Shown piece by piece: positions 4,516-22,169 of a stretch of 25,360 bases of DNA. Made by a program: the position numbers and the translations under genes. Under the pieces are notes generated by a model, which was not told the DNA's origin, made no database searches, and saw only the letters and a program-made list of their open reading frames with translations. How positions within the stretch are numbered: the stretch's first letter is position 1; each line of letters opens with the position of its first letter. The DNA is from a virus (taxonomy: Duplodnaviria > Heunggongvirae > Uroviricota > Caudoviricetes): the IMG/VR virus record IMGVR_UViG_2529292905_000020; one strand, 5' to 3'.

Positions 4516-4684
4516 TATCGCGTCCTCAACAATGAATTTTGTGATGCGGTGCCTGGTGCCTCCAGGTGACGTTAACCAGTTAACAATTAACGCCGGATAC
4601 AGTGAATCCCCCCATAACACTGTTTTTAGCTTTAACTGTTCCGCGTGCGCTTAGCCGCATTCACTGCATCACAAAATTCACTTT

Positions 4685-4740: not shown

Positions 4741-5073
4741 ATTGATAACAGAGGGCGTTGCAGCGGGGTTGTCACTTAAGCGTATGGTCAACCTGACAAC
4801 CCGGTGTCCTCAACGGGGAAGGAATAACCCCGCCATACTTACCGCTGCGCCATTTCGCGGAGTGCCACAACCGGAAGCGCACGGTCGACGAAAATTTAAC
4901 GACAGGCTATCTATGAACCAGCAACCTCGCCGTGCGCTTTCGCGTTATGCTCTGACTTTTCAGAGAAATATCCTTTCAGTAAACTGTCAGTGCCGGATGT
5001 TCACCCGTGTCCGGCGCACGCACTCCACTTCACCCGTGGAGAACTCCTTAATTACCAACCCTCAGGAGGGTGA

Positions 5074-5307
5074 ATGTTAAAATCAACTCTTATTGCTAAA
5101 TGCCTTTATCAAAATCGCATGGTAAGCAGCATTTCAATAGGCGAGTCTGCAGTTAAAAGTATTTTCGAAGAGTACTTTCCCGGGCATGATTTTAATAAAT
5201 GGAATACCAAATTACCGCCAGCAGTTTCAACGCGTATTCTGAAAGCAACCGAAAGAGCAAGTACAATTCGCGTTAACTATTTCATTAAAGATTTGTGGGA
5301 TCTTTGA
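5074..5307 (+). CDS. Hypothetical protein (77 aa), antisense to the dicB operon
   Basis: ORF with AGGAGG 4 nt upstream of ATG 5074. AT-rich. 3' end overlaps the convergent 135-aa ORF by 23 nt. No recognised family. Confidence 0.3.
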   Translation: MLKSTLIAKCLYQNRMVSSISIGESAVKSIFEEYFPGHDFNKWNTKLPPAVSTRILKATERASTIRVNYFIKDLWDL

Positions 5308-5692
5308 TATCCACAGAGCCTAAAGTATGTGCATATGGATGTGCTATTATGCGCCCTCGCAGATTTGCATCATTTTCTAAATTCACTGAACGAAACAGGG
5401 CATCAACAAGGCTCTGTACAATGCAAAGGCAATCGAAGACTGTCGCCGTTTCTGTTTTGATTGATGAAAGAACATGGCCATTCACGCAAACAGAAATTAC
5501 CCGTTTATTAACATCGCTTTCCTGCTTTTGATTATCAGAACCATATAGCCCAGAAAAAGCATTGCGCACATTACGAACCATATTATCGATGGTTTCTTTT
5601 TCTGCGGTACTAAGGTCAAGAGTAGCCAGTTGTGAACGAACTATATTCGATGCCATTTCCTGTAATGGCGTTGGTAAATCTTTAAATTCCAT
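5285..5692 (-). CDS. Hypothetical protein (135 aa), AT-rich insert in the dicB operon
   Basis: ORF starts 20 nt downstream of ydfC with GAGG about 8 nt upstream of ATG 5692. AT-rich relative to neighbours. No recognised motif. Confidence 0.55.
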   Translation of the reverse strand: MEFKDLPTPLQEMASNIVRSQLATLDLSTAEKETIDNMVRNVRNAFSGLYGSDNQKQESDVNKRVISVCVNGHVLSSIKTETATVFDCLCIVQSLVDALFRSVNLENDANLRGRIIAHPYAHTLGSVDIKDPTNL

Positions 5693-5714
5693 TATTAGCC
5701 TCGTTGGTTAGCTA

Positions 5715-5933
5715 TTAACGTGGGTATGTAATCATTCTGGCAATGCTTAATGCCGCTGCTTTTTCCAGATTGGTGATATCCTGCTCCAGAGCGGACAGAT
5801 TTTCAGCCTGCTTAGCCCTGGCTTCATTGGCCCATTTCAGGTCCTGCACCGCCTTAATTTTCTGGTGCATCCACTCATAAAGTTCATCATCGGTATAGTC
5901 TGGCGCGATGATGACGGGGGCTCGTTTCTGCAT
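5715..5933 (-). CDS. ydfC: YdfC-like protein (72 aa)
   Basis: MQKRAPVIIAPDYTDDELYEWM...LSIARMITYPR matches my recollection of Qin YdfC. Same operon position. Confidence 0.7.
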   Translation of the reverse strand: MQKRAPVIIAPDYTDDELYEWMHQKIKAVQDLKWANEARAKQAENLSALEQDITNLEKAAALSIARMITYPR

Positions 5934-6005
5934 GTCGGCTCCTTGTGGTTAGCGTTGCCTGCTTTTTAACCACGTCAGGCGAGGTGGTATCCTCTGAGGG
6001 GTCTG

Positions 6006-6362
6006 TTACTCGAGAGGAAATTGGTTATGAATACAATCAAGTTTTCTTGCCCAGAATGTGGTGGCTAAGTCTTTGACACATCCTTTAAGCCGCAGGGCTC
6101 TGACAGTTTCGCGGGAGCCATCTGCAAAAATTGTGGTCACCTTGTAACTGAAGATGAGTCCTCGCAGTTCGATGACGAAATCGTTGACAATATCTTCGGT
6201 GCACTCACCAGAGACTTTCTGAAGTAAAGGCGCATACCGCTTAGTTACCGCTCTGATAACTCTTACCTGTCCGGCAATGGCGCTGATATCAATATAAAGC
6301 GCCATCGCTGTTTCTTTGCTGATCCCTGGACGCCTTCCATTCTGATGTTTGACTTCGCCCAC
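6006..6362 (-). CDS. Hypothetical protein (118 aa), first gene of the dicB-type operon
   Basis: GTG start at 6362 with GAGGA about 8 nt upstream. Possibly corresponds to the ydfA/ydfB region of K-12 Qin as a single ORF. Confidence 0.55.
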   Translation of the reverse strand: MGEVKHQNGRRPGISKETAMALYIDISAIAGQVRVIRAVTKRYAPLLQKVSGECTEDIVNDFVIELRGLIFSYKVTTIFADGSRETVRALRLKGCVKDLATTFWARKLDCIHNQFPLE

Positions 6363-6568
6363 TGAGAAATCCTCTGCTTCCCCTTAACGCCGGGTAGCGG
6401 AACTGTTTGCTGAGAACACCGTGCGGTGTCTTGATGAGTAGAATTTAGAATAGCCTAAGAGTTATGGTCGAGCTTTTGTGTAGAAAAACCTAAGCTTCTT
6501 GATGTAAAAAACACAAGTATTTGAAAGTTTGTGCTTTTTATTACAGAGAGTTGCGAAAAAAAGGGGGG

Positions 6569-6976
6569 TTATTTATTTGCGCTTCTTTTGCGAGCTTTGA
6601 GTAGTTCTTCAAAAAGTTTGTTGAAATTCTCAACTCGAGCACGCATCTCTGACAACAGAGCCTTTTGCTCTGACTCAGGCAGTGCGTCGAACAGTTGAAG
6701 CAACTCTTTTTGATCTTCTGTCAGATTGACTGGCTGATTATCTGGGATCGGTTCGCCTGGTTGCTTATCTTCATCTCCAAAAAGAAGCCAAGTCGGCGAG
6801 CACTGAAGCGCCTGGCTCAGTGCGAATAATCTCTTCCCCGCTGGCTGTGTTTCATCTCTTTCCCATTGAGAAATTGTTACGTGAGCCACTTTGACCAGCT
6901 TACCTAATGCGGCCTGAGACAGTTTTAATTTTTTTCGCCTGTATAAGAGGCGAGCACCGAAGGTTTCGTTTTTCAT
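6569..6976 (-). CDS. dicA: DicA repressor (HTH XRE family, cI-like)
   Basis: 135-aa ORF MKNETFGARLLYRRKKLKLSQAALGKLVKVAHVTISQWERDETQP... with a clear HTH motif. Divergent from dicC. Confidence 0.9.
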   Translation of the reverse strand: MKNETFGARLLYRRKKLKLSQAALGKLVKVAHVTISQWERDETQPAGKRLFALSQALQCSPTWLLFGDEDKQPGEPIPDNQPVNLTEDQKELLQLFDALPESEQKALLSEMRARVENFNKLFEELLKARKRSANK

Positions 6977-7052
6977 ATTAGGTAATTCTAATTTTTCTTG
7001 ACTTAGGTTTCTCTACGATCTAGTTTCCTTAGGAAAATCTAAGGGGTTCGAT
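6977..7052. promoter_or_regulatory. Divergent dicA/dicC promoter-operator region
   Basis: 76-bp intergenic region with three TTAGG-containing sites (6978-6991, 7013-7026, 7027-7044). The last is a perfect palindrome CCTTAG-GAAAAT-CTAAGG. TTGACT -35-like hexamer at 7006-7011. Confidence 0.5.
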
Positions 7053-7280
7053 ATGTTGAAAATTGATGCTATAGCGTTTTTTGGCAGCAAAACAAAGCTT
7101 GCCAATGTCGCAGGAGTTAGGCTGGCAAGCGTTGCTGCATGGGGGGAACTGGTTCCTGAAGGTCGCGCGATGCGCCTGCAAGAGGCATCCGGCGGGGAAC
7201 TTCAGTACGACCCCAAAGTTTATGACGAATATCGTAAGGCAAAGCGGGCGGGGCGGTTGAACAATGAAAATCACCACTGA
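7053..7280 (+). CDS. dicC: DicC (Cro-like regulator)
   Basis: 75-aa ORF MLKIDAIAFFGSKTKLANVAGV... divergent from dicA. AGGGG 6 nt upstream of ATG. Confidence 0.85.
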   Translation: MLKIDAIAFFGSKTKLANVAGVRLASVAAWGELVPEGRAMRLQEASGGELQYDPKVYDEYRKAKRAGRLNNENHH

Positions 7281-7815
7281 ACAGGTTTGTGAGGCTCTGG
7301 ATACCTGGGTATGCCGACCAGGAATGACACAGGAGCAGGCGACGATATTAATCACGGAAGCATTCTGGGCTCTGAAAGAACGCCCGAACATCGATGTTCA
7401 ACGCGTCACGTTTAATGATGGCGAGGTTGATCAACGGGCGCTGGGCGTTAACCGGGTGAAGATATTCGAACGCTGGAAAGCTATCGACACCAGAGATAAG
7501 CGTGACAAATTCACGGCGCTGATTCCGGCAATTATGGAGGCTATCCGGATCAGCGATTTCAGATTGTATTGTGAAATTACTGACGGAAAAAGCATTACGT
7601 ACATGATCGCCGGGTTAAACAAAGAATATGGCGATGTGGTGGAGTCCGGGCTGCTTTTTGCGGATCCAGTTGTTGTGGAACGTGAGACTGACGAGCTTAT
7701 AGAAAAAGCTATTGCTTTCAAGCACGCGTATCGTCAGCAATACCAATATTACTTTGCAGATAAACAAATGTCTGCCAGGGGTTCGTATGAGTATCGATGC
7801 ACTACGATGGGCTAA
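7264..7815 (+). CDS. YdaT-like protein (CII-position gene)
   Basis: 183-aa ORF right after the cro-like gene. Segment KFTALIPAIMEAIR resembles the YdaT family of Rac-type prophages; assignment is by recollection. Confidence 0.55.
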   Translation: MKITTEQVCEALDTWVCRPGMTQEQATILITEAFWALKERPNIDVQRVTFNDGEVDQRALGVNRVKIFERWKAIDTRDKRDKFTALIPAIMEAIRISDFRLYCEITDGKSITYMIAGLNKEYGDVVESGLLFADPVVVERETDELIEKAIAFKHAYRQQYQYYFADKQMSARGSYEYRCTTMG

Positions 7816-8827
7816 AAAGGTGAAAACCGGCAGTTCATCCAGTAAGTCAGTATTGACCTGGCTTGCTGATATGTGCGGTGCCGATTTGTGTGCATACCCG
7901 TCTGTATCTGCACTGGCAGAAGTAACGGAACTGAACAAAAAGACTGTGCAGGACAGCTTACGACACCTGATGGAGATTGGGTTAATTGTTGATACCGGTG
8001 AGAGAAAAGGCAGAACAAAGCAAATTGTGGTGTACCGACTTATCGGTGTAGAAGAAAGTGTTGCCGAGCCTGAATACACCCAAAAACGGGAGTCTTTAAA
8101 GGTGGGTAAAATTGGTGCTGTTAATAAAAACAGTACCGAAAATGGTTATGTTTCAGCACAAAACAGACCCAAAAACAGAACTCTTAGCTGCATGGAAAAT
8201 AACCAAAGACACCCAAATTTTCCATCAAAGACACCCAAAAACGGATCACGGAACCCAAAGGAACCCAAAGATCTAAACCCCACACATAACGCACGCGAGA
8301 GTGCTCCGACCAGTGAGCAGGAAGTTTTGTCGTTACAGGCAGCCCCCCCTGTATTCCTGTATGGCCTGAGCGAACCCATCGGAAAATTCCCGATGAGCGA
8401 TAGCTGGTATCCGTCACGGGATTTTCGACGACGGGCTGCGTTGTGGGGGATGGCTTTGCCGGAGACAGAATTTACACCTGCTGAACTTGCCGCCTTCCGG
8501 GACTACTGGGCAGCGGAGGGGAAAGTGTTTACGCAGATTCAGTGGGAGCAGAAATTCGCCCGTCACGTAAATCACGTCAGGGCGCAGGTTAAACCAGTCA
8601 GCAAAGGGGTAAACCATGCAGCAGCACCAGGTGGCACCGCATCACGGGCAGTTCAGGAAATTCGGGCAGCACGTGAGCAGTGGGAACGTGAAAACGGATT
8701 TATCAGCGACGGAAACGGCCTGGAAGCTGTGGGAACTCATGGGGGTGGTTTATTCGAACCGCTGGATCCAGAAGAACGGGGCCGCACCTTCGAAGCTCTG
8801 GATTGCACAGATTGGCGCGATGACTGA
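7787..8827 (+). CDS. Replication initiation protein (O-like: N-terminal HTH, C-terminal DnaT-like segment)
   Basis: Start at ATG 7787 (MSIDALRWAKKV...) with AGGGG upstream. C-terminal SDSWYPSRDFRRRAALWG...FRDYWAAEGKVFTQIQWEQKF resembles the DnaT-like domain of lambdoid initiators. Contains iteron-like repeats. 3' end overlaps the P-like ORF out of frame. Confidence 0.75.
   Translation: MSIDALRWAKKVKTGSSSSKSVLTWLADMCGADLCAYPSVSALAEVTELNKKTVQDSLRHLMEIGLIVDTGERKGRTKQIVVYRLIGVEESVAEPEYTQKRESLKVGKIGAVNKNSTENGYVSAQNRPKNRTLSCMENNQRHPNFPSKTPKNGSRNPKEPKDLNPTHNARESAPTSEQEVLSLQAAPPVFLYGLSEPIGKFPMSDSWYPSRDFRRRAALWGMALPETEFTPAELAAFRDYWAAEGKVFTQIQWEQKFARHVNHVRAQVKPVSKGVNHAAAPGGTASRAVQEIRAAREQWERENGFISDGNGLEAVGTHGGGLFEPLDPEERGRTFEALDCTDWRDD
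8201..8271. repeat. Iteron-like direct repeats inside the O-like gene (putative ori)
   Basis: ACACCCAAA at 8209-8217 and 8231-8239; AACCCAAAG at 8253-8261 and 8263-8271. Falls in a low-complexity linker of the protein, as lambda ori lies within O. Confidence 0.45.
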
Positions 8828-9281
8828 GCAGCAAATCCGGCAGGTCTGCCGCCAGTGCATGGACCGCTGCCGGGCGGGTGAAACATGGCCTCCGGACCTG
8901 GCTGAGTTTGTGGCACTGATTTCGAAAAGCGGAGCCAATCCATTCGGTCTGACGGTGGATGCTGTGATGGAGGAGTACCGCCGCTGGCGCAATGAGTCCT
9001 GGCGATACAACGGAAGTGATAAGTACCCGTGGTCTCAGCCTGTGCTGTATCACATTTGCCTCGAGATGCGTTCAAAGGGGATTGAGCGCCAGATGACCGA
9101 AGGGGAATTAAAACGGCTTGCAGAACGGCAACTGACGAAATGGGCAAAGCATGTTAGTAACGGCCTGAGCGTTCCGCCAGTCCGGCGACAACTGGCGGCC
9201 CCCAAACGCCCGTCGGGGCCAACGCCAATTGAGTTGCTGAAACAGGAATATGAACGCCGGAAAGCGGCTGGTTTTGTTTGA
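8616..9281 (+). CDS. Replication protein P-like (helicase loader)
   Basis: 221-aa ORF. C-terminal half resembles lambda P (SDKYPWSQPVLYHICLEMRSKG vs ESYPWKSNAHYWLVTNLYQN). AAAGGGG 7 nt upstream of ATG 8616. The start is uncertain because of a 212-nt overlap with the O-like ORF. Confidence 0.7.
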   Translation: MQQHQVAPHHGQFRKFGQHVSSGNVKTDLSATETAWKLWELMGVVYSNRWIQKNGAAPSKLWIAQIGAMTEQQIRQVCRQCMDRCRAGETWPPDLAEFVALISKSGANPFGLTVDAVMEEYRRWRNESWRYNGSDKYPWSQPVLYHICLEMRSKGIERQMTEGELKRLAERQLTKWAKHVSNGLSVPPVRRQLAAPKRPSGPTPIELLKQEYERRKAAGFV

Positions 9282-9314
9282 GTTGAGAAGTGATTTTTTA
9301 CCGGGAGGAAATTT

Positions 9315-10049
9315 ATGGAGACTGTTTTTGACGCACTGAAAGCGATGGGAAAAGCCACGTCGGTAGAGCTGGCTGCGCGACTTGATATCAGTCGTGAAGA
9401 AGTACTGAACGAGCTGTGGGAACTGAAAAAGGCTGGCTTCGTTGATAAAAGCGTATACACCTGGCGTGTGGCTGATAACAACGTTCAGCAGGAACAGCCA
9501 GCGCCAGAAGAAACCACCACGGCAACAGAAGCGAAAATCTCAGAGTGCGATTTAACCGCGACGATTGAACAACGCGGACCACAAACGGCGGATGAACTGG
9601 CTACGCTGTTCGGTACAACATCCCGCAAAGTTGCTTCAACGCTGGCAATGGCAATCAGCAAAGGTCGTCTGATTCGCGTAAACCAGAACGGTAAAATTCG
9701 TTACTGCATACCAGGTGATAATTTACCAGCAGAGCCGAAAGTTGAATCGGTAGCGGAAACCGATGGTAAAGCCTTTCCTCAGCCAGCCGGTGTTGCGTTA
9801 CCGGTACAGAAAGATGCAACACAGGAAGATATTAAAACAGAAACTGTGGCGGACATTGTGCAGTCGCTGCCATCGTTTACTGCAACGCGAGAAGATGATT
9901 TGATTTTGCCATCGCTGCATATGGCAAATCGCGAACTGCGTAGGGCGAAGAATCATGTCCAGAAGTGGGAGCGAGTCTGCGCCGCGCTGCGGGAGCTGAA
10001 CAAGCACCGGGATATGGTTGCCGGGATTTGTCGGAAGTCCGGGCAATGA
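9315..10049 (+). CDS. Hypothetical protein with two winged-helix-like N-terminal repeats
   Basis: 244-aa ORF with GGGAGG upstream. Two similar segments ([30 protein letters not shown] and [33 protein letters not shown]). Confidence 0.55.
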
Positions 10050-10178
10050 GCGGATGGTGCAGGCCTGAAATCATGATACTAACAATGAAGGTAAAATGCA
10101 TCGGCAGTCTGATTGGTCGTAGTGAGGCGGCGGTCAGGATGAAAGCCCAGGTTAAGGGAATAAGCCTGATTCTGCGGG

Positions 10179-10490
10179 GTGATTTTCACCAGTCAACAAA
10201 ATATCCGTAGCGCGATAACGGTCAAAAATTATGGTGCTGACACTTTTGTGCCACTGGAGATGACTGTACCTAAGTTCAGGGGAGAAGAACACGTCCGGTG
10301 GGATGGTCGGGCCAGATTTAAAGGGCAGGTCATGGCTCCAGCCTGTACGCTGGCAATGGAGGCTGCCTGGCGGGAAATTGATATGGGAACCACGCCACTC
10401 AGGGATTTACTGCCGGTCCAGAGAATAAATTCCTGTTACGGTTACACCACTGTGATCTTGCAAGTGCAGGAAAGTAGGTCTACACGGTAA
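10179..10490 (+). other. Possible gene remnant (fimbrial-subunit-like segment)
   Basis: 103-aa ORF with no signal peptide. Segment RFKGQVMAPACTLAMEAAW weakly resembles the N-terminal strand of mature type 1 fimbrial subunits (FKGEVVNAACAV). Could be a fragment or spurious. Confidence 0.2.
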
Positions 10491-10716
10491 CGCGAGTGCG
10501 TGTAACTTTTGATGTCATTCCCGTAGAAACACCGGACAAATTTTCGCTGACAGGTCATGCAGAAGGTATAAATCTGCAGATTATGGACAATTACGGATAT
10601 CCGGCAAGAGCCGGAAAAAGCATGCCGCCTCTAATTCTCAGTGGAAGATGGACTTGATTATACTCATTGCATTGTCAGAAATAGTTATCCATTAAAGGCT
10701 GGCTATTCCAAACAGG

Positions 10717-10744
10717 ATGTTGATTACAAAAATGTAATCAACAT
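10717..10744. promoter_or_regulatory. 12-bp perfect inverted repeat (candidate operator)
   Basis: ATGTTGATTACA-AAAA-TGTAATCAACAT, about 165 bp upstream of the binding-protein gene, in AT-rich DNA. Confidence 0.4.
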
Positions 10745-10908
10745 GTAAGGTTTATACTCTTCAATATGCGTATAATTTTCCTTATTTTGTTGACTTTAAA
10801 TAACAAGCTATGCACGAGGTAAAGTCGGATAAGTTTATCTGGATGTAATATATATTATTTGTAGTGTTTATAACTTTATTTCATGATAACCAATAAAAGG
10901 AGTTTTTT

Positions 10909-11667
10909 ATGAGGAACATAATGGCAGGTTTTTTAATATTCCTGTCTTCTGCTGCTTATGCTGATATCAATCTGTATGGTCCTGGTGGCCCGCATACAGC
11001 CTTGCTTGATGCAGCCAAACTTTATGCCGAAAAAACAGGTATTATAGTGAACGTTCATTACGGCCCACAGAACAAATGGAATGAAGATGCCAAAAAAAAT
11101 GCAGATATCTTGTTTGGCGCATCAGAACAATCTGCTCTGGCTATCATTCGGGACCATAAAGACAGCTTCAGTGAAAAAGATATTCAGCCTCTTTATCTGC
11201 GAAAAAGTATTTTACTGGTAAAGAAAGGTAATCCTAAAAATATCCGGAGTATTGACGACCTGACCAGACCTGGGATTGGCGTAATTGTTAATGATGGTGG
11301 TGGTACCAGTAATACATCAGGCACTGGCGTCTGGGAAGATATTGCCGGACGTAAAGGGAATATAGAAACTGTCGCCGCAATCCGAAAAAATATTATTTTA
11401 TATGCGCCCAATAGCGGAACTGCACGTAAGGCTCTTGAGAATCAGCCTGGAGCAGATGTCTGGATAACCTGGGCTGACTGGGCAGCCAGTAATCCAGAAA
11501 TTGGTGATGTCGTGGAAATAGCGCCAGACTACGTGATATGGCGTGATATGAACATTACAGTACGTCAGGATGCAAATGATGAAACCCGTCGATTTGCAGA
11601 ATGGCTACAAACCGATGAAGCGGCGCCTGCATTCAAAAAATATGGCTGGACCAGGAAAGGCACTTGA
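10909..11667 (+). CDS. Periplasmic substrate-binding protein, ModA/TupA-like type II fold, with Sec signal peptide
   Basis: 252-aa ORF, AAGGAG upstream. N-terminal signal peptide (MRNIMAGFLIFLSSAAYA then D). Colinear resemblance to E. coli ModA over the whole length (C-terminal FAEWLQTDEAAPAFKKYGW vs FYDYLKGPQAAEIFKRYGF). AT-rich codon usage. No adjacent ABC permease or ATPase gene. Confidence 0.8.
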   Translation: MRNIMAGFLIFLSSAAYADINLYGPGGPHTALLDAAKLYAEKTGIIVNVHYGPQNKWNEDAKKNADILFGASEQSALAIIRDHKDSFSEKDIQPLYLRKSILLVKKGNPKNIRSIDDLTRPGIGVIVNDGGGTSNTSGTGVWEDIAGRKGNIETVAAIRKNIILYAPNSGTARKALENQPGADVWITWADWAASNPEIGDVVEIAPDYVIWRDMNITVRQDANDETRRFAEWLQTDEAAPAFKKYGWTRKGT

Positions 11668-12002
11668 CATCCTCGTCCTTCAGGACGTGGATTCTTTTTC
11701 CGGATGCCGCGCCAGCGGCATGTAGGGGCAGCTCACAAAACGGAAAAAATTGTACGCTAAGCCTCGCCAGGTGAACTGAATTCATTCCGATATGGGAATT
11801 CCCATATCGGGCGAAAACGGTTTGCTGTAACGGCAGAGTTAAGTAGGATTGCTGCGGGTGCTTGAGGCTATCTGCCTCGGGCATGAACACCAACGGCAGA
11901 TAGATAAAAGCCCCACCCGACTATAAATCGAAGTGAGGCCCCTATATGCTCGTCACATATAGATTGCCTCTTACGGACCGAAAGGTCAAGGAGAAGCAGG
12001 CT

Positions 12003-12158
12003 ATGAAGCAGCAAAAGGCGATGTTAATCGCCCTGATCGTCATCTGTTTAACCGTCATAGTGACGGCACTGGTAACGAGGAAAGACCTCTGCGAGGTACG
12101 AATCCGAACCGGCCAGACGGAGGTCGCTGTCTTCACAGCTTACGAACCTGAGGAGTAA
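12003..12158 (+). CDS. hokD: Hok/Gef-family membrane toxin (51 aa)
   Basis: MKQQKAMLIALIVICLTVIVTALVTRKDLCEVRIRTGQTEVAVFTAYEPEE is a Hok-family sequence, matching my recollection of HokD/RelF. Structured leader and 3' fold-back complement present. Confidence 0.85.
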   Translation: MKQQKAMLIALIVICLTVIVTALVTRKDLCEVRIRTGQTEVAVFTAYEPEE

Positions 12159-12228
12159 GAGACCAGGCGGGGGAGAAATCCCTCGCCACCTCTGATGTGT
12201 CAGGCATCCTCAACGCACCCGCACTTAA

Positions 12229-12254
12229 CCCGCTTCGGCGGGTTTTTGTTTTTA
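12229..12254 (+). terminator. Intrinsic terminator after hokD
   Basis: CCCGC-TTCG-GCGGG stem-loop followed by TTTTTGTTTTT. Confidence 0.6.
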
Positions 12255-12386
12255 TTTTCAACGCGTTTGAAGTTCCGGACGGCGCCGGAATAGAATCAAA
12301 AATACTTAAGTAGCGCGCAGGGAGAAGAGGGATGGACCCCGAACTGAACCGCCCCGGTTTTCCTGGAGAGTGTTTTATCTGTGAAC

Positions 12387-13274
12387 TCAGGCTGCCAGAT
12401 CATCGTTTCTGATGGAAGCATAATAAGCTTTTTCTGCTTCTGCCGGAGGGATATGACCCAGCCTTCCCAGCAATCGTCGATTGTTATACCAGTCCACCCA
12501 CGTGAGTGTGGCCAGTTCCACTTCTGCACGGTTTTTCCAGCTCTTACGGTGTATTACCTCCGCTTTGTAAAGACCATTGATGCTCTCCGCCATCGCGTTG
12601 TCATACGAGTCACCTGTACTCCCTGTTGATGCCAGCAGTTTTGCTTCTTTTAGTCGCTCCGTATAGGCCAGTGATACATACTGAGAACCTTTATCACTGT
12701 GATGGACTGTGCCGGACGGCCGACGGGCCCACAACGCCTGCTCCAGTGCATCCAGCACGAATGTCGTTTCCATAGACGATGAGACTCGCCACCCCACGAT
12801 GCATCCGGCAAACACATCAATGATGAACGCCACATAGACGAAGCCCTGCCATGTGCTGACGTAAGTAAAATCAGCCACCCACAGCTGGTCAGGACGTTCT
12901 GCCACGAACTGACGGTTTACGCGGTCGCCTGCGGAAACGGCTTTCCGGCTGACGGTAGTACGGACCTTTTTACCCCGGAGAACACCGGCAAGTCCCATAA
13001 CCGCCATGAGGCGCGCCACTGTACATCTGGCCACCCTGATACCTTCGCGTAACAACTGGCGCCAGACTTTACGCACACCGTACACCTGATGATTTTCATC
13101 GTATACGCGCTGTATCTCTCTCTTCAGCCAGTCATCGCGCTGCGCACGGGCACTGCGTTTATCAGGATGATGTCGCTGTTGCTGACAGTGGTAATACGTT
13201 GACGGGGCAATATGCAGTTCACTGCATACCGGTCCGACCCCGTACTGCTCACGCAGCTTATCCAGCAGTGGCAT
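12387..13274 (-). CDS. IS629 transposase OrfB (DDE catalytic domain)
   Basis: 295-aa ORF with the IS3-family OrfB C-terminus (...LGHIPPAEAEKAYYASIRNDDLAA). Confidence 0.9.
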   Translation of the reverse strand: MPLLDKLREQYGVGPVCSELHIAPSTYYHCQQQRHHPDKRSARAQRDDWLKREIQRVYDENHQVYGVRKVWRQLLREGIRVARCTVARLMAVMGLAGVLRGKKVRTTVSRKAVSAGDRVNRQFVAERPDQLWVADFTYVSTWQGFVYVAFIIDVFAGCIVGWRVSSSMETTFVLDALEQALWARRPSGTVHHSDKGSQYVSLAYTERLKEAKLLASTGSTGDSYDNAMAESINGLYKAEVIHRKSWKNRAEVELATLTWVDWYNNRRLLGRLGHIPPAEAEKAYYASIRNDDLAA

Positions 13275-13600
13275 TATTTTTTCCAGAGGCGGTCGAACTC
13301 CGCCTTCGCAAAATAAGCGGAAGCCTGGCGAAGGATATCGTTACTGCGGCGCAGTTCACGATTTTCACGTTCCAGCTCTTTCAGACGCTGACGTTCAGCG
13401 GTGGTGAATCCACCATCACCACTCCCGGTATCCCGCTCATGCTGACGAACCCACACACGCAGAGTCTCTGGCGTACAGCCAATCTTTGGGGCAATGGAAC
13501 AAATTGCCGCCCATTGTGAGTCATATTCGCCCTGACTTTCCAGAACCATACGAACTGCCCGTTGACGGACCTCGGGGGAAAAACGTGTATTTTTAGTCAT
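13274..13600 (-). CDS. IS629 transposase OrfA (HTH)
   Basis: 108-aa [22 protein letters not shown]... matching remembered IS629 OrfA. Its stop overlaps the OrfB ATG (TAATG) beside an A6 run. Confidence 0.9.
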
Positions 13601-13692
13601 CCTGTTTACCTCTTTCTCAGGGAGTTTAGTCTCCAGGATTCCCGGGGCGGTTCAAACAGGGGGAGTGCTATTTATCTGGAAGGATTCTGTTG

Positions 13693-15355: not shown

Positions 15356-15721
15356 ATGACTGAACGGATAGAATTTGTTTTGCCTTACCCGCCGACGGTG
15401 AATACCTACTGGCGACGTCATGGCAATACGTATTTCATCTCGGAAGCCGGAAAGCGTTATCGCCGTGATGTGGCGCTAATTGTTCGCCAGCAGCGGCTGA
15501 AATTAAACCTGTCCGGAAGGCTGGTGATAAAGATTATTGCAGAGCCACCGGATAAGCGCCGTCGTGACCTGGACAATATCCTGAAAGCACCACTGGATGT
15601 GCTGACGCATGCCGGACTTCTCATAGACGACGAGCAGTTTGATGAAATCAATATTGTGCGCGGTCAGCTCGTTCCTGGTGGGCGGCTGGGGATAAAAATC
15701 ACAGAACTGGAGTGCGCATGA
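15356..15721 (+). CDS. rusA: RusA Holliday-junction resolvase
   Basis: 121-aa ORF with RusA hallmarks (YPPTVNTYWRRHGN..., RRRDLDNILKAPLDVLTHAGLLIDDEQ). Confidence 0.9.
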   Translation: MTERIEFVLPYPPTVNTYWRRHGNTYFISEAGKRYRRDVALIVRQQRLKLNLSGRLVIKIIAEPPDKRRRDLDNILKAPLDVLTHAGLLIDDEQFDEINIVRGQLVPGGRLGIKITELECA

Positions 15722-15876
15722 ATAACCACTATTTACAGTTTGTGCGTGAGCAGCTCATTATCGCCACCGCTGATTTGAGTGGGGCAACAAAAGGTCAGCT
15801 TGAAGCCTGGCAGGAGAATGCCATGTTCGATACAGGGCGTTACAGGCGAAAAAAATCCGGTACCGCGATGAAGTGA
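15718..15876 (+). CDS. Small hypothetical protein (52 aa)
   Basis: Below the ORF-track size cutoff. ATG overlaps the rusA stop (ATGA); its stop overlaps the GTG of the next gene. Position matches the small gene between rusA and Q in DLP12-type prophages. Confidence 0.3.
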   Translation: MNNHYLQFVREQLIIATADLSGATKGQLEAWQENAMFDTGRYRRKKSGTAMK

Positions 15877-16406
15877 CTGGAAAAATGATAACGCGGGATA
15901 ATCCACCAATCCCGGGAAAGCAATCGCTGGCGAAGGTGACGTCAATTCCTCTGGTCAGTCCGGTTGAGTTTTCGACATCATCGTGGCGGCGGGCTGTTCT
16001 GTCTCTTGAAGAACATCATAAAGCCTGGTTGTTGTGGTGTTACAGCGGGAGTATTTGTTGGGAATATCAGATCGCGATAACACAGTGGGCGTGGAATGAA
16101 TTTAATACTCAATCCGGTACCAGAAAAATTGCTGGGAAAACGCAGGAACGCCTGAAAAAATTAATCTGGCTGGCGGCGCAGGCAGTAAAAGCAGAACTTT
16201 TTGGTGGGGAAGGTTATGAATATCAGGAGCTGGCATTACTGGCGGGAGTGACAACTAAAAACTGGTCCAAAACATTTACTCGTCACTGGGTTGCAATGAA
16301 ACACATTTTTCACCGACTGGATAGTGAGGCTTTATTATTTGTAATGAGAACACGTTCAAAACAAAAGGCGGCATTTTCAAAGCAAAGTGTTGCAAAAGTA
16401 GATTGA
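15873..16406 (+). CDS. Putative late-gene antiterminator (Q-like)
   Basis: 177-aa ORF between rusA and the late promoter/tRNA cluster. Assignment is mainly positional; the family is not confidently recognised. Confidence 0.5.
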   Translation: MTGKMITRDNPPIPGKQSLAKVTSIPLVSPVEFSTSSWRRAVLSLEEHHKAWLLWCYSGSICWEYQIAITQWAWNEFNTQSGTRKIAGKTQERLKKLIWLAAQAVKAELFGGEGYEYQELALLAGVTTKNWSKTFTRHWVAMKHIFHRLDSEALLFVMRTRSKQKAAFSKQSVAKVD

Positions 16407-16473
16407 AAGGCATATATTTCATGCAAATCTGATATTTTGCCGATTTTGTACGTGATGGCAAAAGCAAACAAAA

Positions 16474-16497
16474 CCCGCCCACAAGCGGGTTTTGTTG
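16474..16497 (+). terminator. Intrinsic terminator downstream of the Q-like gene
   Basis: CCCGC-CCACAA-GCGGG stem-loop followed by TTTTGTTGTG. Confidence 0.55.
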
Positions 16498-16563
16498 TGC
16501 CACTTATCTCGGATAGACATGGTGAATGCGCTGGTGGAGGAGATAAGGGTGATTTTTGTATGC

Positions 16564-16592
16564 TTGCAACATTGATTTCGTAACGTTATTAT
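16564..16592 (+). promoter_or_regulatory. Sigma70-type promoter (candidate late promoter pR') upstream of the tRNA cluster
   Basis: TTGCAA, 17-nt spacer, TATTAT; the -10 ends about 9 nt before the first tRNA. Confidence 0.5.
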
Positions 16593-16601
16593 CCTGCGCC
16601 C

Positions 16602-16677
16602 GGCCCTTTAGCTCAGTGGTGAGAGCGAGCGACTCATAATCGCCAGGTCGCTGGTTCAAATCCAGCAAGGGCCACCA
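16602..16677 (+). tRNA. ileZ: tRNA-Ile2 (anticodon CAU, lysidine type)
   Basis: 76-nt cloverleaf. Acceptor GGCCCTT/AAGGGCC, anticodon loop CUCAUAA, T-loop TTCAAAT, encoded CCA. Closely resembles E. coli ileX. Confidence 0.9.
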
Positions 16678-16680
16678 ACC

Positions 16681-16754
16681 GCCACCAGCCATCAGGAAAG
16701 AGCGTCAACCCTTTAAGTTGAGTGTGCGAGGTTCGAGTCCCCGGTGGTGGTCCA
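16681..16754 (+). tRNA. Atypical tRNA-like sequence (degenerate argN-like?)
   Basis: Acceptor and T-arm can be drawn (T-loop TTCGAGT). Anticodon stem TCAAC/GTTGA with loop CCTTTAA (C at position 33, anticodon UUU by position). No canonical D-stem. Identity uncertain. Confidence 0.35.
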
Positions 16755-16767
16755 TTATCGGTATTCT

Positions 16768-16841
16768 GCGTTGTTAGCTCAGCAGGACAGAGCAATTGCC
16801 TTCTAAGCAATCGGTCACTGGTTCGACTCCAGTACAACGCG
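16768..16841 (+). tRNA. argO: tRNA-Arg (anticodon UCU)
   Basis: 74-nt cloverleaf. Acceptor GCGTTGT/ACAACGC, D-stem GCTC/GAGC, anticodon stem ATTGC/GCAAT with loop CTTCTAA, T-arm ACTGG-TTCGACT-CCAGT. 3' CCA not encoded. The argO name is positional (third tRNA of the Stx-phage-type trio). Confidence 0.85.
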
Positions 16842-17013
16842 CTACACTTATTTTCCCGGCTCGCTTTTGCGGGCCTTTTTTGTATCTGCGCCACGCCCGG
16901 CGCATACCAACCACAGAGCCTTTCGGGGGGGAGCTTACGGAGTGGTCAGTGTGACTTTCTCTGTGGGCAGATCGCTCCCGGGCGTTGGCTCACCCACCCA
17001 AAGGAACGTCACG

Positions 17014-17446
17014 ATGTTTGGTATTTTTGGTAAAAAAAGCCCGCAGAGCGGCAACGGAAATTAAAAAGTTTGAAAAACGCGATCTGGCACAGGTGGTGAT
17101 TAACGCCGCATACCTGGTGGCCTATGCAGATGGTGAATGTGAGGCTTCCTAGAAAGCGAAGATCGAACAGGTACTGCGTAATCAGCCTGCGCTGTCCGCG
17201 TTTACGTCAGAAATTAATGCGATTAGCGCAACCATTATCGGTCAGCTGGATACGAACTTTAAAACTGGTCGTCGTGCGGCGTTACGTGAGATCGAGGATG
17301 TGAAACACGATACGCGTGAAGCGGAAGATGTGCTGGATGTGGCGGTGGCCATTGCGGAGGCAGACGGCGAAATTGAGCCGGAAGAGCGCAAGGTGCTGGA
17401 AGAGATTGCCGGTGTTCTGGGTCTTCGTCTGGAGAATTACCTGTGA
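17014..17446 (+). pseudogene. TerB-like domain gene, disrupted (frameshift plus in-frame amber)
   Basis: ATG 17014 with AAAGGAA upstream encodes MFGIFGKKSPQSGNGN then stop. The +1 frame continues IKKFEKRDLAQVVINAAYLVAYADGECEAS, TAG at 17150-17152, then KAKIEQVL...AIAEADGEIEPEERKVLEEIAGVLGL ending at 17446. The ADG-containing repeats suggest a TerB-like fold. Confidence 0.5.
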
Positions 17447-17610
17447 CGGTAAAACTGCGCCTGACTGTGGCTGCACTCCTGCTGTTTCTGGTGGTGATGG
17501 TGGATTTCACCAGCAGAATCATGTCGGTGCTGGCGGATGGGGGGCTGGTCTGCGGCATTATGGTATTGCTGTGGCCGGTGATAAAAAGAAACAGCCTGCA
17601 TAATGCTTGA
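17443..17610 (+). CDS. Small hydrophobic protein (55 aa)
   Basis: GTG start overlapping the TerB-like stop (GTGA). MTVKLRLTVAALLLFLVVMVDFTSRIMSVLADGGLVCGIMVLLWPVIKRNSLHNA has two hydrophobic segments. Below the ORF-track cutoff. Confidence 0.3.
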   Translation: MTVKLRLTVAALLLFLVVMVDFTSRIMSVLADGGLVCGIMVLLWPVIKRNSLHNA

Positions 17611-17811
17611 TTTTTTTGTTTGCTGTTTATTAAAAACACTTCTGCATGGTGAATCCCCCTGTGCGGTGGGGCAATCAGCAAGAAGGAATATGGGGTAATC
17701 GCGGATTCAGGTGCTGATACTGAATTCACCGGGAGGCACCCGGCACCATGCTTTGCCACAAAAGTGTTATTTCTGTTTTTCTCAAACTATCATCGTTATC
17801 CCTTTATTTTC

Positions 17812-17838
17812 GGCTGCGCATGGCGCGGCCTTTTTTTT
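17812..17838 (+). terminator. Intrinsic terminator upstream of the esterase gene
   Basis: GGCTGCGC-ATG-GCGCGGCC stem (one G-U pair) followed by T8. Confidence 0.55.
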
Positions 17839-17924
17839 ACGACCAGCCACTGGCAGATGGTCATCCTGTGATTTGATTCCGCTTCCGGCTTTTTAACTCT
17901 GTTCCTCTACACGGGAGAAATTCG

Positions 17925-19775
17925 ATGTCGATTAAACATTACGATGTTATCAGGGCGGCGTCGCCGTCAGACCTTGCGGAAAAGCTGACACACAAACTGA
18001 AAGAGGGCTGGCAGCCATACGGCGGACCGGTTGCCATTACGCCGTACACACTGATGCAGGCGGTGGCTATTGAAGGAGAGCCACAGGTCGGCCCTTCATC
18101 TGAGCCGGATTGGTACTACGTCATCGTACTGGCCGGGCAGTCCAATGCAATGGCTTACGGTGAAGGGCTTCCGCTGCCGGATTCATACGATGCTCCGGAT
18201 CCGCGCATTAAACAGCTGGCGCGCCGCAGTACAGTGACGCCGGGTGGGGCTGCCTGCAGATATAACGATATTATTCCGGCTGACCACTGTCTGCATGATG
18301 TGCAGGATATGAGTACGCTGAATCATCCGAGGGCTGACCTGAGCAAAGGGCAGTACGGCTGTGTCGGTCAGGGTTTACATATTGCCAAAAAACTGCTCCC
18401 GTATATCCCGAATAACGCGGGGATCCTGCTGGTACCATGCTGTCGTGGTGGTTCGGCATTTACCCAGGGCGCGGAGGGGACATTCAGCGAGTCCACGGGG
18501 GCCAGTCAGGATTCGGCACGCTGGGGGGTGGGCAAGCCGTTATATCAGGATCTGATTTCCCGCACAAAAGCGGCATTGCAGAAAAATCCCAAAAACGTTC
18601 TGCTGGCCGTCTGCTGGATGCAGGGTGAGTTTGACATGAGCGCCGCCACCCACGCACAGCAACCTGCGCTGTTTACAGCCATGCTGACACAGTTTCGTGC
18701 TGACCTCTCCGTGTTTAACGCGCAGTGCCATGGTGGCAGTGCTGCAGATGTGCCGTGGGTTTGTGGTGACACGACGTATTACTGGAAAAATACATACGCT
18801 ACCCAGTACGACACCGTGTACGGCGGGTATAAAAACAGGGAGAGTGAGGGCGTTTATTTTGTGCCCTTCATGACAGATGGTAACGGCGTCAATACCGCCA
18901 CTAACGCGCCGGCAGAAGATCCGGATATTCCGGCATCAGGATATTACGGTGCGGCATCGAGAACGAATGGAAACCAGGTATCATCAAACCGCCCGACACA
19001 TTTCAGTTCATGGGCGCGCAGGAGCATTATTCCGGATCGTCTGGCAACCGCTATTCTGAACGCAGCCGGGCGCACCTCAGCCTTCATCAGTGGTAAGGCA
19101 CCGGAAATCAAACCCTCGCCCGGCGGCAACACGCCATCGGGTCCGTCTGCAGATACGTCCGTTCGCACAATCTCCCTGCTGCCGGCAGCCGGAGAGGCTG
19201 CTGCGCAGGGCTGGAGCATTAAGGATGGCGGAATTCAGTTGTCAGATGGTGTATTTAAGATCACCAAGCAGAGCAATAAAACCTGGTCCCTGACGCATCC
19301 GGTGGATGACGCAATTACCCTGCTGACACAGGGCGGCAGACTGACCTGTAAGTTCCGCCTGTCAGGCGCACTGACCAACAATCAGTTCGGGCTGGGGATT
19401 TATCTGTATACGGATGCTCCCGTTCCTGATGGTGTGGCGATGACGGGTACCGGTAATCCGTTCCTGATGTCGTACTTCACTCAGACCACTGACGGCAGAG
19501 TGAATCTGATGCATCACAGGAAAGCCGGAAACACGAAGCTGGGGGAGTTCGGCGATTACGGTAACGACTGGCAGACGCTGGAGCTGGTGTTCACCGCCGG
19601 CAGTGCCACGGTTACTCCGAAACTGAATGGAGTGGCTGGCCCGGCATTCCAGGTTATAAAAGACAGTCTGACACTGGGACTGAATGCGCTGACGCTGACG
19701 GATGTTACAAAAAATGCAGCGTATGGCGTTGAGATAGAAAGTCTGATGCTGGAGATAAATGCACCGGCAGCATAA
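17925..19775 (+). CDS. nanS: NanS-p-like sialate O-acetylesterase (N-terminal DUF1737-like segment plus SGNH/SASA esterase domain)
   Basis: 616-aa ORF with GGGAGAAA upstream. VIVLAGQSNAMAYGEG matches the GQSN block of sialate O-acetylesterases. Sits where Stx prophages carry nanS-p next to stx. Confidence 0.8.
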   Translation: MSIKHYDVIRAASPSDLAEKLTHKLKEGWQPYGGPVAITPYTLMQAVAIEGEPQVGPSSEPDWYYVIVLAGQSNAMAYGEGLPLPDSYDAPDPRIKQLARRSTVTPGGAACRYNDIIPADHCLHDVQDMSTLNHPRADLSKGQYGCVGQGLHIAKKLLPYIPNNAGILLVPCCRGGSAFTQGAEGTFSESTGASQDSARWGVGKPLYQDLISRTKAALQKNPKNVLLAVCWMQGEFDMSAATHAQQPALFTAMLTQFRADLSVFNAQCHGGSAADVPWVCGDTTYYWKNTYATQYDTVYGGYKNRESEGVYFVPFMTDGNGVNTATNAPAEDPDIPASGYYGAASRTNGNQVSSNRPTHFSSWARRSIIPDRLATAILNAAGRTSAFISGKAPEIKPSPGGNTPSGPSADTSVRTISLLPAAGEAAAQGWSIKDGGIQLSDGVFKITKQSNKTWSLTHPVDDAITLLTQGGRLTCKFRLSGALTNNQFGLGIYLYTDAPVPDGVAMTGTGNPFLMSYFTQTTDGRVNLMHHRKAGNTKLGEFGDYGNDWQTLELVFTAGSATVTPKLNGVAGPAFQVIKDSLTLGLNALTLTDVTKNAAYGVEIESLMLEINAPAA

Positions 19776-19776
19776 T

Positions 19777-20072
19777 AAAAAAAGCCAGCGACTGACCTGA
19801 AAAAGAAGACGCTGGCTAAAAGGCCTTATATGTTTGTAGAGACTTATTTTTCACAGACAGCAATGATGCCTGTCAATATATTATCAATATGCGGATTGTT
19901 TCAGTTACAGATGCCTTATTAAGGAAAAAAACAGCCAGCACTGACTTTCGGTGGAGAGGTGCTGGCTCAAAAGGATAGATGTACTTCACATGTTGCTTCT
20001 ATATGGCAGTACATTTTCTGACAGACAGTGACGGATGTTGTCAAGATATTGTGTCATTTATAACCTGAATCA
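19777..20072. repeat. Two diverged copies of a ~130-bp element, each starting with an A-run and a GCCAGC...GCTGGC hairpin
   Basis: Copy 1 19777-19905 (hairpin 19784-19816); copy 2 19925-20072 (hairpin 19934-19966). Shared blocks AAAAGG, TTTTC(A/T)CAGACAG, TGTCAA(T/G)ATATT. Read on the minus strand each hairpin is followed by a U-run. Confidence 0.5.
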
Positions 20073-20141
20073 GGGGAGGCCGGAATGTTATCTGGCATTT
20101 TTAGCAGAGCCTGAATGCCATAATCACGGCTCCCGGCGTTG

Positions 20142-20178
20142 GCCGTCAGTGGGTGACACTGGCGGCTTTTTTGTTTTT
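20142..20178 (+). terminator. Strong intrinsic terminator 45 nt upstream of the holin gene
   Basis: GCCGTCAGTG-GGTGA-CACTGGCGGC (10-bp stem, one G-U) followed by TTTTTTGTTTTT. Confidence 0.6.
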
Positions 20179-20222
20179 CTTTACTTTCATTTTCTGTCGG
20201 CGGTGACGGAGACATACATCAG

Positions 20223-20429
20223 ATGGAAAAAATCACAACAGGTGTGTCATACACCACGTCAGCGGTGGGGACGGGATACTGGTTACTGCAGCTGCTGGAC
20301 AAAGTCTCTCCGTCCCAGTGGGTGGCAATAGGTGTGCTGGGAAGTCTGCTGTTTGGCCTGCTGACGTATCTGACAAATCTTTATTTCAAGATTAAAGAAG
20401 ATAAGCGTAAGGCTGCGAGAGGTGAATAA
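20223..20429 (+). CDS. Holin (phage 21 S-type pinholin)
   Basis: 68-aa [71 protein letters not shown] closely resembles remembered S21. Confidence 0.9.
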
Positions 20430-20926
20430 TGTCGCCGTCATTACGCAAGGCTGTTGCAGCTGCTATTGGTGGTGGGGCTGTTGCCATAGCGTCTGTGCTC
20501 ATCACTGGTCCAGGTGGTAACGATGGTCTGGAAGGTGTCAGCTACATACCATACAAAGATATCGTTGGCGTATGGACTGTATGTCACGGACACACCGGAA
20601 AAGACATCATGCCCGGTAAAACGTATACCGAAGCAGAATGCAAAGCCCTCCTGAATAAAGACCTTGCCACGGTCGCCAGACAAATTAACCCGTACATCAA
20701 CGTCGATATACCGGAAACAACGCGCGGCGCTCTTTACTCGTTCGTTTACAACGTGGGCGCTGGCAATTTCAGAACATCGACGCTTCTTCGCAAAATAAAC
20801 CAGGGCGATATCAAAGGCGCATGTGATCAGCTACGGCGCTGGACATACGCTGGCGGTAAGCAATGGAAAGGGCTGATGACTCGCCGCGAGATTGAGCGTG
20901 AAGTCTGTTTGTGGGGGCAACAATGA
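20429..20926 (+). CDS. SAR endolysin (lysozyme, phage 21 R-type)
   Basis: 165-aa ORF. N-terminal Gly/Ala-rich signal-anchor segment ([20 protein letters not shown]) then a T4-lysozyme-like domain. TAATG overlap with the holin gene. Confidence 0.9.
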
Positions 20927-21390
20927 GCAGGGTAACCGTTATTATCTCCGCTCTGGTTATCTGCATTATCGCCTGCCTGTCATGGGCTGTTAATCATTAC
21001 CGCGATAACGCCATTACCTACAAAGCGCAACGCGATAAAAAAGCCAGTGAGCTGAAGCTGGCGAACGTGACAATTACTGATATGCAGGTACGCCAGCGTG
21101 ATGTCGCTGCACTTGATGCCAGATACTCGAGGGAATTAGCCGATGCGAGAGCTGAAAATGAAACTCTGCGTGCTGATGTTGCCGCTGGTCGTAAGCGCCT
21201 GCGCATCAACGCCAACTGTCCAGGCTCCTTGCGTAAAGCCCCCATCACCTCCGGCGTGGGTAATGCAACCGGTCCCCGACTGGCAGAAGCCGCTGAACGG
21301 GATTATTTCATCCTCAGAGAACGGCTGATGGCAATGCAGAAGCAACTGGAAGGAGCACAGGAATATATCCGTACCCAGTGTATACCGTGA
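20923..21390 (+). CDS. Rz (inner-membrane spanin)
   Basis: Start at ATG 20923 overlapping the endolysin stop (ATGA). N-terminal TM segment, coiled-coil-like body. Contains an embedded +1-frame lipoprotein ORF. Confidence 0.85.
21158..21328 (+). CDS. Rz1 (outer-membrane lipoprotein spanin), embedded in Rz
   Basis: [15 protein letters not shown]: lipobox VSAC followed by a Pro-rich mature region ([22 protein letters not shown]), entirely inside Rz in another frame. Confidence 0.7.
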
Positions 21391-21854: not shown

Positions 21855-22169
21855 ATGCTACATGATCACGTGGCAGAATGTCTAGAGAAAAAAGGACTGT
21901 ACCGGAGAGCAGCTGAACGATGGGCAAAAGTGATGGTACAGCTAAGTGATGACCAGAAAAGAAAAGTGGCGGCACAGAAACGAGCAGAGTGTTTGCGTAA
22001 GGCGCGCCGGACTCCGGTTTCACCGGTGAACCTGACCGAAATAAAACAAGCGGTCAACAGACTACATTCTGAGTTGGGAATGGGATTTGAAGAGCGGCGG
22101 GTATTCCGACGATATAAAGGGACAGGAGAACAGAATACGTCCGGAAACGCGCGGTCAAAAAAATGCTAA
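21855..22169 (+). CDS. PerC-family transcriptional regulator (Pch-like)
   Basis: 104-aa ORF with GGAGG upstream. N-terminal VAECLEKKGLYRRAAERWAKVM resembles the conserved PerC/Pch N-terminus. AT-rich, preceded by a T-rich tract. Confidence 0.55.
   Translation: MLHDHVAECLEKKGLYRRAAERWAKVMVQLSDDQKRKVAAQKRAECLRKARRTPVSPVNLTEIKQAVNRLHSELGMGFEERRVFRRYKGTGEQNTSGNARSKKC

Follow-up and report, generated by a model that had tools for sequence, protein, structure and literature searches.

Organization of the late region

The virus record IMGVR_UViG_2529292905_000020 (IMG/VR; Caudoviricetes) has been analysed as a stretch of 25,360 nucleotides, referred to here as the window, with attention to the late region around positions 16564-19775. 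A preliminary description made from the sequence alone had interpreted this region as one that resembles the late region of Shiga toxin (Stx)-converting phages but lacks the stx genes. The comparisons carried out here indicate that it very probably comprises the late-operon leader and the slot for accessory ('moron') genes in a lambda-like prophage that is integrated beside ompW, belongs to the PPompW/Sakai Sp9 family and is located in an Escherichia coli O55:H7-like chromosome. The features of the late region, all of them on the plus strand, are the following:

15718-16406 (+), Q antiterminator gene of the phage-82 type (PF06323), frameshifted in the window
16390-16418 (+), pR'-like late promoter, TTGCAA-17-TATATT (promoter scan), overlapping the Q stop codon
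16467-16503 (+), tR'-like intrinsic terminator, hairpin at 16467-16496 (terminator scan)
16564-16592 (+), tRNA promoter pT, TTGCAA-17-TATTAT, followed by a G+C-rich stretch, CCTGCGCCC
16602-16677 (+), tRNA-Ile2, anticodon CAU, ileZ type (ARAGORN; Rfam tRNA, 72.5 bits)
16679-16754 (+), degenerate argN-derived tRNA-like element (from alignments; without a call by ARAGORN, Rfam or the Prokaryotic Genome Annotation Pipeline, PGAP, in the window)
16768-16842 (+), tRNA-Arg, anticodon UCU, argO type (ARAGORN; Rfam, 68.1 bits; alignment with argO of phage 933W)
16858-16883 (+), intrinsic terminator after the tRNA genes, left border of the cargo slot (terminator scan)
17014/17018-17446 (+), TerB/TciA-like pseudogene with a nonsense TAG at 17150-17152
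17443-17610 (+), intact DUF3927/TciB-like hydrophobic open reading frame (ORF) of 55 amino acids (Pfam PF13064, 6.2e-16; phrog_1470)
17615-17787 (+), STnc100-family small RNA (sRNA; RF02076, 100.8 bits against an Rfam gathering score of 47)
17812-17838 (+), intrinsic terminator behind STnc100 (terminator scan)
17925-19775 (+), intact gene for a NanS-p type sialate O-acetylesterase of 616 amino acids (Pfam PF08410, PF03629 and PF20350; DUF1737-SASA-DUF6645)
19776-20222 (+), esterase-holin spacer of 447 bp, with a terminator at 20141-20175
20223-20429 (+), P21-type class II holin gene (Pfam PF04971; PGAP in strain DEC5A)
20429-20926 (+), lysozyme gene (Pfam PF00959; PGAP in DEC5A)
20923-21390 (+), Rz spanin gene (Pfam PF03245; PGAP in DEC5A)

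Every component named in the preliminary description, that is, a Q-like gene, a terminator, a promoter, ileZ-like and Arg tRNA genes, a NanS-p gene and a lysis cassette, was identified, but their order and coordinates had to be amended: Q and the terminator are located upstream of position 16564, where that description began, and the first promoter, pR', precedes the terminator. Position 16564 corresponds to the -35 hexamer of pT. Two elements had not been included, the degenerate argN-like element and the STnc100 sRNA.

Comparison of the cargo slot with Stx phages

In the Stx2a phage 933W the annotated order is Q, pR', qut, terminators, pT, ileZ, argN, argO, terminator, stxA2, stxB2, esterase, S and R. 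Window positions 16564-16892 align with the 933W segment pT-ileZ-argN-argO-terminator at 87% identity, and this alignment ends 43 bp before the start of stxA2. Homology returns at window position 17626, equivalent to a point located 87 bp past the stop codon of stxB2 and inside the STnc100 sRNA, and continues into the esterase gene. The non-homologous pair enclosed by these flanks is formed by window positions 16893-17625 (733 bp, with the disrupted TerB gene and TciB) and by 933W L004:4421-5789 (1369 bp, with stx2AB). As the preliminary description had proposed, a disrupted TerB-like gene and a small hydrophobic ORF stand in the stx position, and the alignment shows that the TerB/DUF3927 segment (16893-17614) occupies precisely the stx2AB slot. 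The absence of AB5 toxin genes was also confirmed: a tblastn search of the window with the A and B subunits of Stx1 and Stx2 gave a best E value of 0.2, and sensitive blastn searches with both operons matched only the shared 43-nt segment of the sRNA. No stx remnant was detected.

The slot is occupied by stx2AB in 933W, by stx1AB upstream of the esterase gene in the Stx1 phage YYZ-2008, by a membrane protein gene and TciB in phage 434, and by TerB (TciA) and TciB in the window; in Sakai Sp9, which has the same tRNAs and esterase, it carries no coding sequence. A 'moron insertion site' located 3' of pR' was described by Tree et al. 2014 (PMC4104026) in prophages Sp3, 4, 5, 9, 10, 11, 15 and 17, with sRNAs situated between the moron coding sequence and a conserved ORF. 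The layout is ordinary, widespread and already described, and the slot is the published moron site downstream of pR'. The module order Q, pR'/tR', tRNAs (in some cases), cargo, NanS-p and lysis genes is present in the window and also in non-Stx phages, and hence it does not discriminate between them; the expression 'scaffold of Stx-converting phages' is adequate as regards collinearity with those phages, but not as regards specificity for them.

In addition to the order of elements, the window shares with 933W the homologous pT, ileZ, argO and post-tRNA terminator, the STnc100-family sRNA and NanS-p behind the slot, and a P21-type holin that is 88% identical. It differs from 933W in the absence of stx, in the TerB/TciB content of the slot, in its Q family, in the degenerate argN, in the lack of the anti-sRNA AsxR, in an esterase that is only about 71-80% identical, in a different lysozyme and in the absence of the Ant insertion from the lysis cassette.

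Prophage backbone and the question of a lost toxin

Positions 15800-20500 are 99.9-100% identical to O55:H7 strains DEC5A, CB9615 and RM12579, among others, and the whole window is 99.7-99.8% identical to these O55:H7 strains except for about 1.3 kb that are absent from them. The corresponding prophage of DEC5A directly adjoins ompW. Positions 1-12344 are 97.4-99.8% identical to Sp9 of O157:H7 Sakai, which is likewise located beside ompW, and this similarity covers the exonuclease, immunity and replication genes and paa. The window begins within an integrase gene, whose homologues in DEC5A (99.8%) and Sakai Sp9 (97.4%) are found directly beside ompW, the ompW gene itself lying outside the window. 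Among 767 complete E. coli genomes, 44% were reported to carry PPompW prophages, whose early regions were conserved and whose late regions were highly variable, and every copy seemed to be defective (Nakamura et al. 2021, PMC8112680). The copy in the window also looks decayed and defective, with a nonsense codon in TerB, a frameshift in Q, a degenerate argN and an insertion sequence (IS) upstream, in agreement with the published view of these prophages (PMC8112680).

The late region of the window is not that of Sakai Sp9, which has a DUF1133/PF06530-type Q and a methylase, an empty slot with STnc100 and an AgvB-type sRNA, and a different lysis cassette. In the O145:H28 PPompW prophages, unlike the window, the esterase-lysis block has been lost by IS-mediated deletion. 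The right-hand module finds its closest counterpart in phage 434, a classical non-Stx lambdoid phage obtained from Paris sewage in the 1950s, whose esterase-lysis block is 99.7% identical to that of the window. Phage 434 also has an 82-type Q (73% amino acid identity), and the block that spans TciB, esterase, holin, endolysin and spanin is 95-99.7% identical; unlike the window, it has no tRNA genes and carries a gene for a 247-amino acid membrane protein instead of TerB. The esterase-to-holin block is also 96-97% identical to that of many Stx1a phages, and the module circulates irrespective of stx.

An alternative origin of the region is a former Stx-converting phage in which the stx operon was replaced by TerB/TciB through recombination at the conserved flanks, the tRNA terminator on the left and STnc100 on the right. 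The fact that homology to 933W extends on both flanks as far as the limits of the stx2 operon and the similarity of the esterase-to-holin block to Stx1a phages would fit this origin, which is nevertheless considered unlikely: no stx remnant was found, Q, backbone and integration site are those of PPompW/Sp9 and not those of a reference Stx phage, the cassette is found in 806 genomes and behind several unrelated left-hand neighbours, and the non-Stx phage 434 has the same right-hand module. On the available sequence comparisons it is highly likely that the window prophage did not arise from a Stx phage by loss of the toxin, because its backbone is of the PPompW/Sp9 type, its Q belongs to another family, its right-hand module is 434-like and its cassette is widespread and mobile. 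The same results (backbone, Q of family PF06323, 434-like block and absence of a stx remnant) disagree with the initial proposal of a stx-free relative of the Stx phages or of a phage that had lost stx. That proposal would have been given up if tRNAs and nanS proved common without stx in an unrelated lambdoid lineage; the first part largely applies, but the modules are true homologues of those of Stx phages and the lineage cannot be called unrelated.

Several points weigh against the assignment to a PPompW/Sp9 prophage that did not derive from a Stx phage. If stx had been exchanged for TerB in the past by recombination at the common flanks, the sequence would not reveal it, and for the ancestors of the late module it is unprovable that they never had stx. 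The 87-97% homology to Stx-phage modules indicates that the late region has exchanged DNA with Stx phages or their relatives. The promoter, terminator and antitermination activities are predicted from consensus matches and homology. Finally, the Q frameshift is a 1-nt homopolymer change that could be a sequencing error, its exact form being found in only 15 of 912 matching records.

Antiterminator gene, late promoter and leader RNA

The intact Q allele of DEC5A matches Pfam PF06323 at 9.7e-91, and the Q protein shows 76% amino acid identity to Q of phage 82, 73% to the '82-like' Q of phage 434 and 66% to Q of Gifsy-1. By contrast, Q belongs to family PF06530 in 933W and in YYZ-2008, so that a Stx-type Q (933W/H-19B type) is not present in the window. 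The intact form of the window protein shows 100% identity to the Q of PPompW phage records in the databases (LC567822-LC567841), as well as to that of O145:H28 PPompW records. When 50,697 phage records were examined, this Q appeared under the label 'Stx2a-converting' only in composite records that include a PPompW prophage. The A-run at 15849-15855 consists of seven residues (A7) in the window and of eight in the otherwise identical gene of O55:H7 DEC5A, as revealed by alignment. This change shifts the frame after codon 44, and the ATG frame ends at a stop at 15876. The exact 61-mer with the A7 run is scattered over unrelated strains in its 15 complete-genome records, and it is either a private or recurrent slippage mutation or a homopolymer sequencing error.

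The sequence at 16390-16418 is predicted to act as the late promoter pR', and its position matches that of the Q-proximal late promoter annotated in 933W. The tR' terminator, which is annotated at the equivalent place in 933W and 434, closes a leader RNA of about 80 nt beginning near 16425. This leader (16425-16506) folds at -29.6 kcal/mol (z = -4.4). Two hairpins are formed at 16425-16503, with sub-threshold Rfam matches to isrK (19.4 bits) and OrzO-P (27.4 bits). Because Q is 66% identical to that of Gifsy-1, this leader may correspond distantly to the short pR' RNAs of the Gifsy-1 IsrK or Stx-phage StxS type.

tRNA genes

The promoter pT aligns with the 933W feature annotated as 'pT; putative tRNA promoter'. 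In the 933W-type cluster, Ile-CAU, Arg-UCG and Arg-UCU tRNA genes follow pT; in the window ileZ and argO are present, and the place of argN is taken by the degenerate element. The tRNA-Ile2 gene is identical to 933W ileZ and was labelled as Met by ARAGORN and as Ile by PGAP (in DEC5A). The codons decoded by these tRNAs reach 10.4 (ATA), 8.7 (AGA) and 5.2 (AGG) per 1000 in the window genes. AUA, AGA and AGG are used about 2-4 times as often as on average in E. coli.

The middle element has the anticodon loop CCUUUAA (anticodon UUU, with C33), a G3:U70 acceptor pair, a 1-nt deletion in the D-stem and C at position 8. With respect to 933W argN, it shows double changes that preserve pairing at 27:43 and 30:40 in the anticodon stem and at 7:66 in the acceptor stem. 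In H19 and PPompW_EH2246, where the sole difference is a T at the position equivalent to 16686 (U8), ARAGORN predicted a tRNA-Lys(UUU), and in the Sakai Sp9 copy the anticodon arm is deleted. These features could be read as the remodelling of an argN (Arg-UCG) gene toward UUU as anticodon; if expressed in the U8 relatives, the element could be a phage-borne recoded or mischarging tRNA and not a dead gene, alongside the switch between ATG and TTG initiation by an A6/A7 run at the TerB start described below; this reading is regarded as very unlikely. The element was also considered as an amber suppressor for the TAG codon of TerB, and this was discarded, the anticodon being UUU and not CUA.

The terminator that follows the tRNA genes coincides with a border of homology: similarity ends at 16892 with 933W and at 16879 with Sp9, and similarity with PPyecE_EH1910 starts at 16858. 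In 933W the equivalent hairpin is annotated as 'terminator upstream of the stx genes'.

The TerB/TciB cassette

The TAG codon at 17150-17152 of the TerB-like gene is GAG in intact homologues, and the identical gene is marked by PGAP as a pseudogene with an 'internal stop', so that the window contains no intact TerB ORF. The intact homologue matches Pfam TerB (PF05099) at 2.9e-16 over residues 26-138 and belongs to phrog_632; both TciA and TciB are placed by PHROGs in the category 'moron'. As the preliminary description had suggested looking for, an intact TerB gene was found at this site elsewhere, namely in a prophage of O157:H7 TW14359, in phage JLK-2012 and in PPyecE_EH1910. The exact 61-mer bearing the TAG codon was detected in 185 records of several serotypes (O55:H7, O26, O111:H8), and therefore the nonsense codon is a real inherited allele.

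At the start of the gene, an A7 run at 17032-17038 leaves the ATG at 17014 out of frame (16-amino acid peptide) and the TTG at 17018 in frame. The run is A7 in the window and in the intact allele of O157 TW14359, and A6 in JLK-2012, where the ATG is in frame. The run was considered as a second inactivating frameshift but is not taken as a definite lesion, since A7 is also found in the intact O157 allele, which PGAP reads from TTG. A change between A6 and A7 could move the start of translation from ATG to TTG or back.

Between the tRNA terminator and TerB there is a G+C-rich leader of 130 nt (16883-17013), which accompanies the cassette in both JLK-2012 and PPyecE_EH1910. This leader showed no sigma-70-like promoter, and for this reason the cassette probably depends on read-through.

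Of 5426 complete E. coli genomes, 806 contain the cassette, the median being 5 copies (places) per genome, and its left-hand neighbours vary. It is preceded by tRNA Asn/Thr/Gly genes in JLK-2012 (from O55:H7 DEC5E), by a regulator gene without tRNAs in PPyecE_EH1910 and by three intact tRNA genes in the TW14359 prophage. In these three elements, as in the window, the cassette (88-99% nucleotide identity) lies directly upstream of the STnc100-esterase block (yjhS/nanS-p); unlike the window, TerB is intact and the left-hand neighbours are others. This distribution among sequenced genomes indicates that TerB/TciB is mobile as a discrete cassette. A search of the 50,697 phage records for TciA with at least 95% identity retrieved three non-Stx phages, JLK-2012 (two accessions), Evi and PPyecE_EH1910, and no such close copy of the cassette in Stx-phage records. 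It therefore seems that one slot is filled by either the cassette or the toxin.

A cassette that is still functional as a lysogenic-conversion module, through read-through of the TAG codon, through the downstream part of the gene or through TciB alone, has also been considered. The persistence and spread of the TAG allele over several serotypes and the intact DUF3927 ORF would speak in its favour, although hitch-hiking on the prophage explains the persistence equally well. The stop codon cuts the first 45 codons off from the TerB domain, no suppressor tRNA with anticodon CUA is provided by the middle element, the gene is called a pseudogene by PGAP, and the PADLOC defence models gave no meaningful match to TciA, TciB or the esterase. 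This possibility is judged extremely improbable, and a decayed cassette within a PPompW-type prophage is preferred.

Small RNA, esterase and lysis genes

The cargo slot is bounded on the right by the STnc100 sRNA and its terminator (17615-17838); the match to the 3' part of the STnc100 model is poor. Convergent anti-sRNAs of the AsxR/AgvB type (RF02703/RF02702) were not detected in 17590-17940 even at E <= 10, with models that detect STnc100 and AsxR in 933W and STnc100 and AgvB in Sp9 as positive controls. A weak minus-strand match to 'asX2' was discarded because it corresponds merely to the terminator hairpin, which has no U-tail on that strand.

The esterase has the domain set of the NanS-p family, which agrees with the published domain description (PMC10462455), is prophage-borne and lies upstream of the lysis genes; by this domain evidence the window NanS-p is predicted to be a sialate O-acetylesterase. 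Esterase activity on Neu5,9Ac2 has been demonstrated for NanS-p alleles of EDL933 and O104:H4 (PMC8065619), and nanS-p genes occur in Stx prophages and also in many prophages without stx, EDL933 having seven to ten alleles (PMC8065619, PMC10462455). The nucleotide identity of the window gene is 99.7% to phage 434, 96-97% to Stx1a phages and about 71-80% to the 933W allele.

The spacer between the esterase and holin genes is 96% identical to that of phage YYZ-2008, in which the sRNA PasA has been placed; PasA or PasC is located between esterase and holin genes, TerB, RusA and DUF1627 genes are common neighbours of PasA/PasC sRNAs, and PasD is related to STnc100 (preprint 10.64898/2026.05.13.724894). 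From this similarity, the spacer probably carries a PasA/PasC-type sRNA. Only chance-level matches to Rfam families were obtained in the spacer. Two similar segments of about 50 nt were noticed by eye near 19777 and 19927, and a repeat search at seed 9 detected none in the spacer.

Other features of the prophage

Additional elements located outside the late region are the following:

10909-11667, gene for the Paa (AcfC-family) adhesin, in the early-right region; virulence-associated cargo
11856-12005, sok antitoxin RNA of the hokD type I toxin-antitoxin locus of the prophage (103.9 bits)
12345-13654 (-), IS3-family insertion of 1310 bp, with an ALIL frameshift pseudoknot at 13203-13319
21855-22169, gene for a PerC-family transcriptional activator, just past the lysis cassette; virulence-associated cargo

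The IS3-family element, which lies immediately downstream of hokD/sok, was found neither in the O55:H7 reference strains nor in Sakai Sp9.

Proposed transcription of the region and its significance

A transcription model is proposed by analogy with lambda, phage 82 and 933W, with promoters and terminators placed by consensus matches and homology. RNA polymerase would start at pR' (16390-16418) and, in the absence of Q, would halt at tR' (about 16500), releasing the short leader RNA. With a phage-82-type Q, transcription would read through tR' and the terminators at 16858-16883, 17812-17838 and 20141-20175, so that on induction the cargo, the NanS-p esterase and the holin-lysozyme-Rz lysis genes would be expressed. 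The tRNA genes would be transcribed from their own promoter, pT. In the decayed copy present in the window, probably only the pT-driven tRNAs, the sRNA and promoter-proximal transcripts are still made. As to its origin, the slot between the tRNA terminator and STnc100 is exchangeable, with TerB/TciB as an alternative cargo, and the module set is very probably shared among prophages of enterohaemorrhagic and enteropathogenic E. coli (EHEC/EPEC) through homologous recombination.

The shared flanks, that is, the tRNA terminator on one side and STnc100 with the esterase on the other, are plausible recombination substrates for moving stx or other cargo between co-resident prophages, an exchange with which the literature on O157/O55 is already familiar. 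The scaffold formed by Q, tRNAs, nanS and lysis genes without stx should not be taken as a 'lost toxin' signal in annotation or surveillance; many lambdoid prophages of EHEC/EPEC have this layout by default, and stx is one of several interchangeable cargo states.

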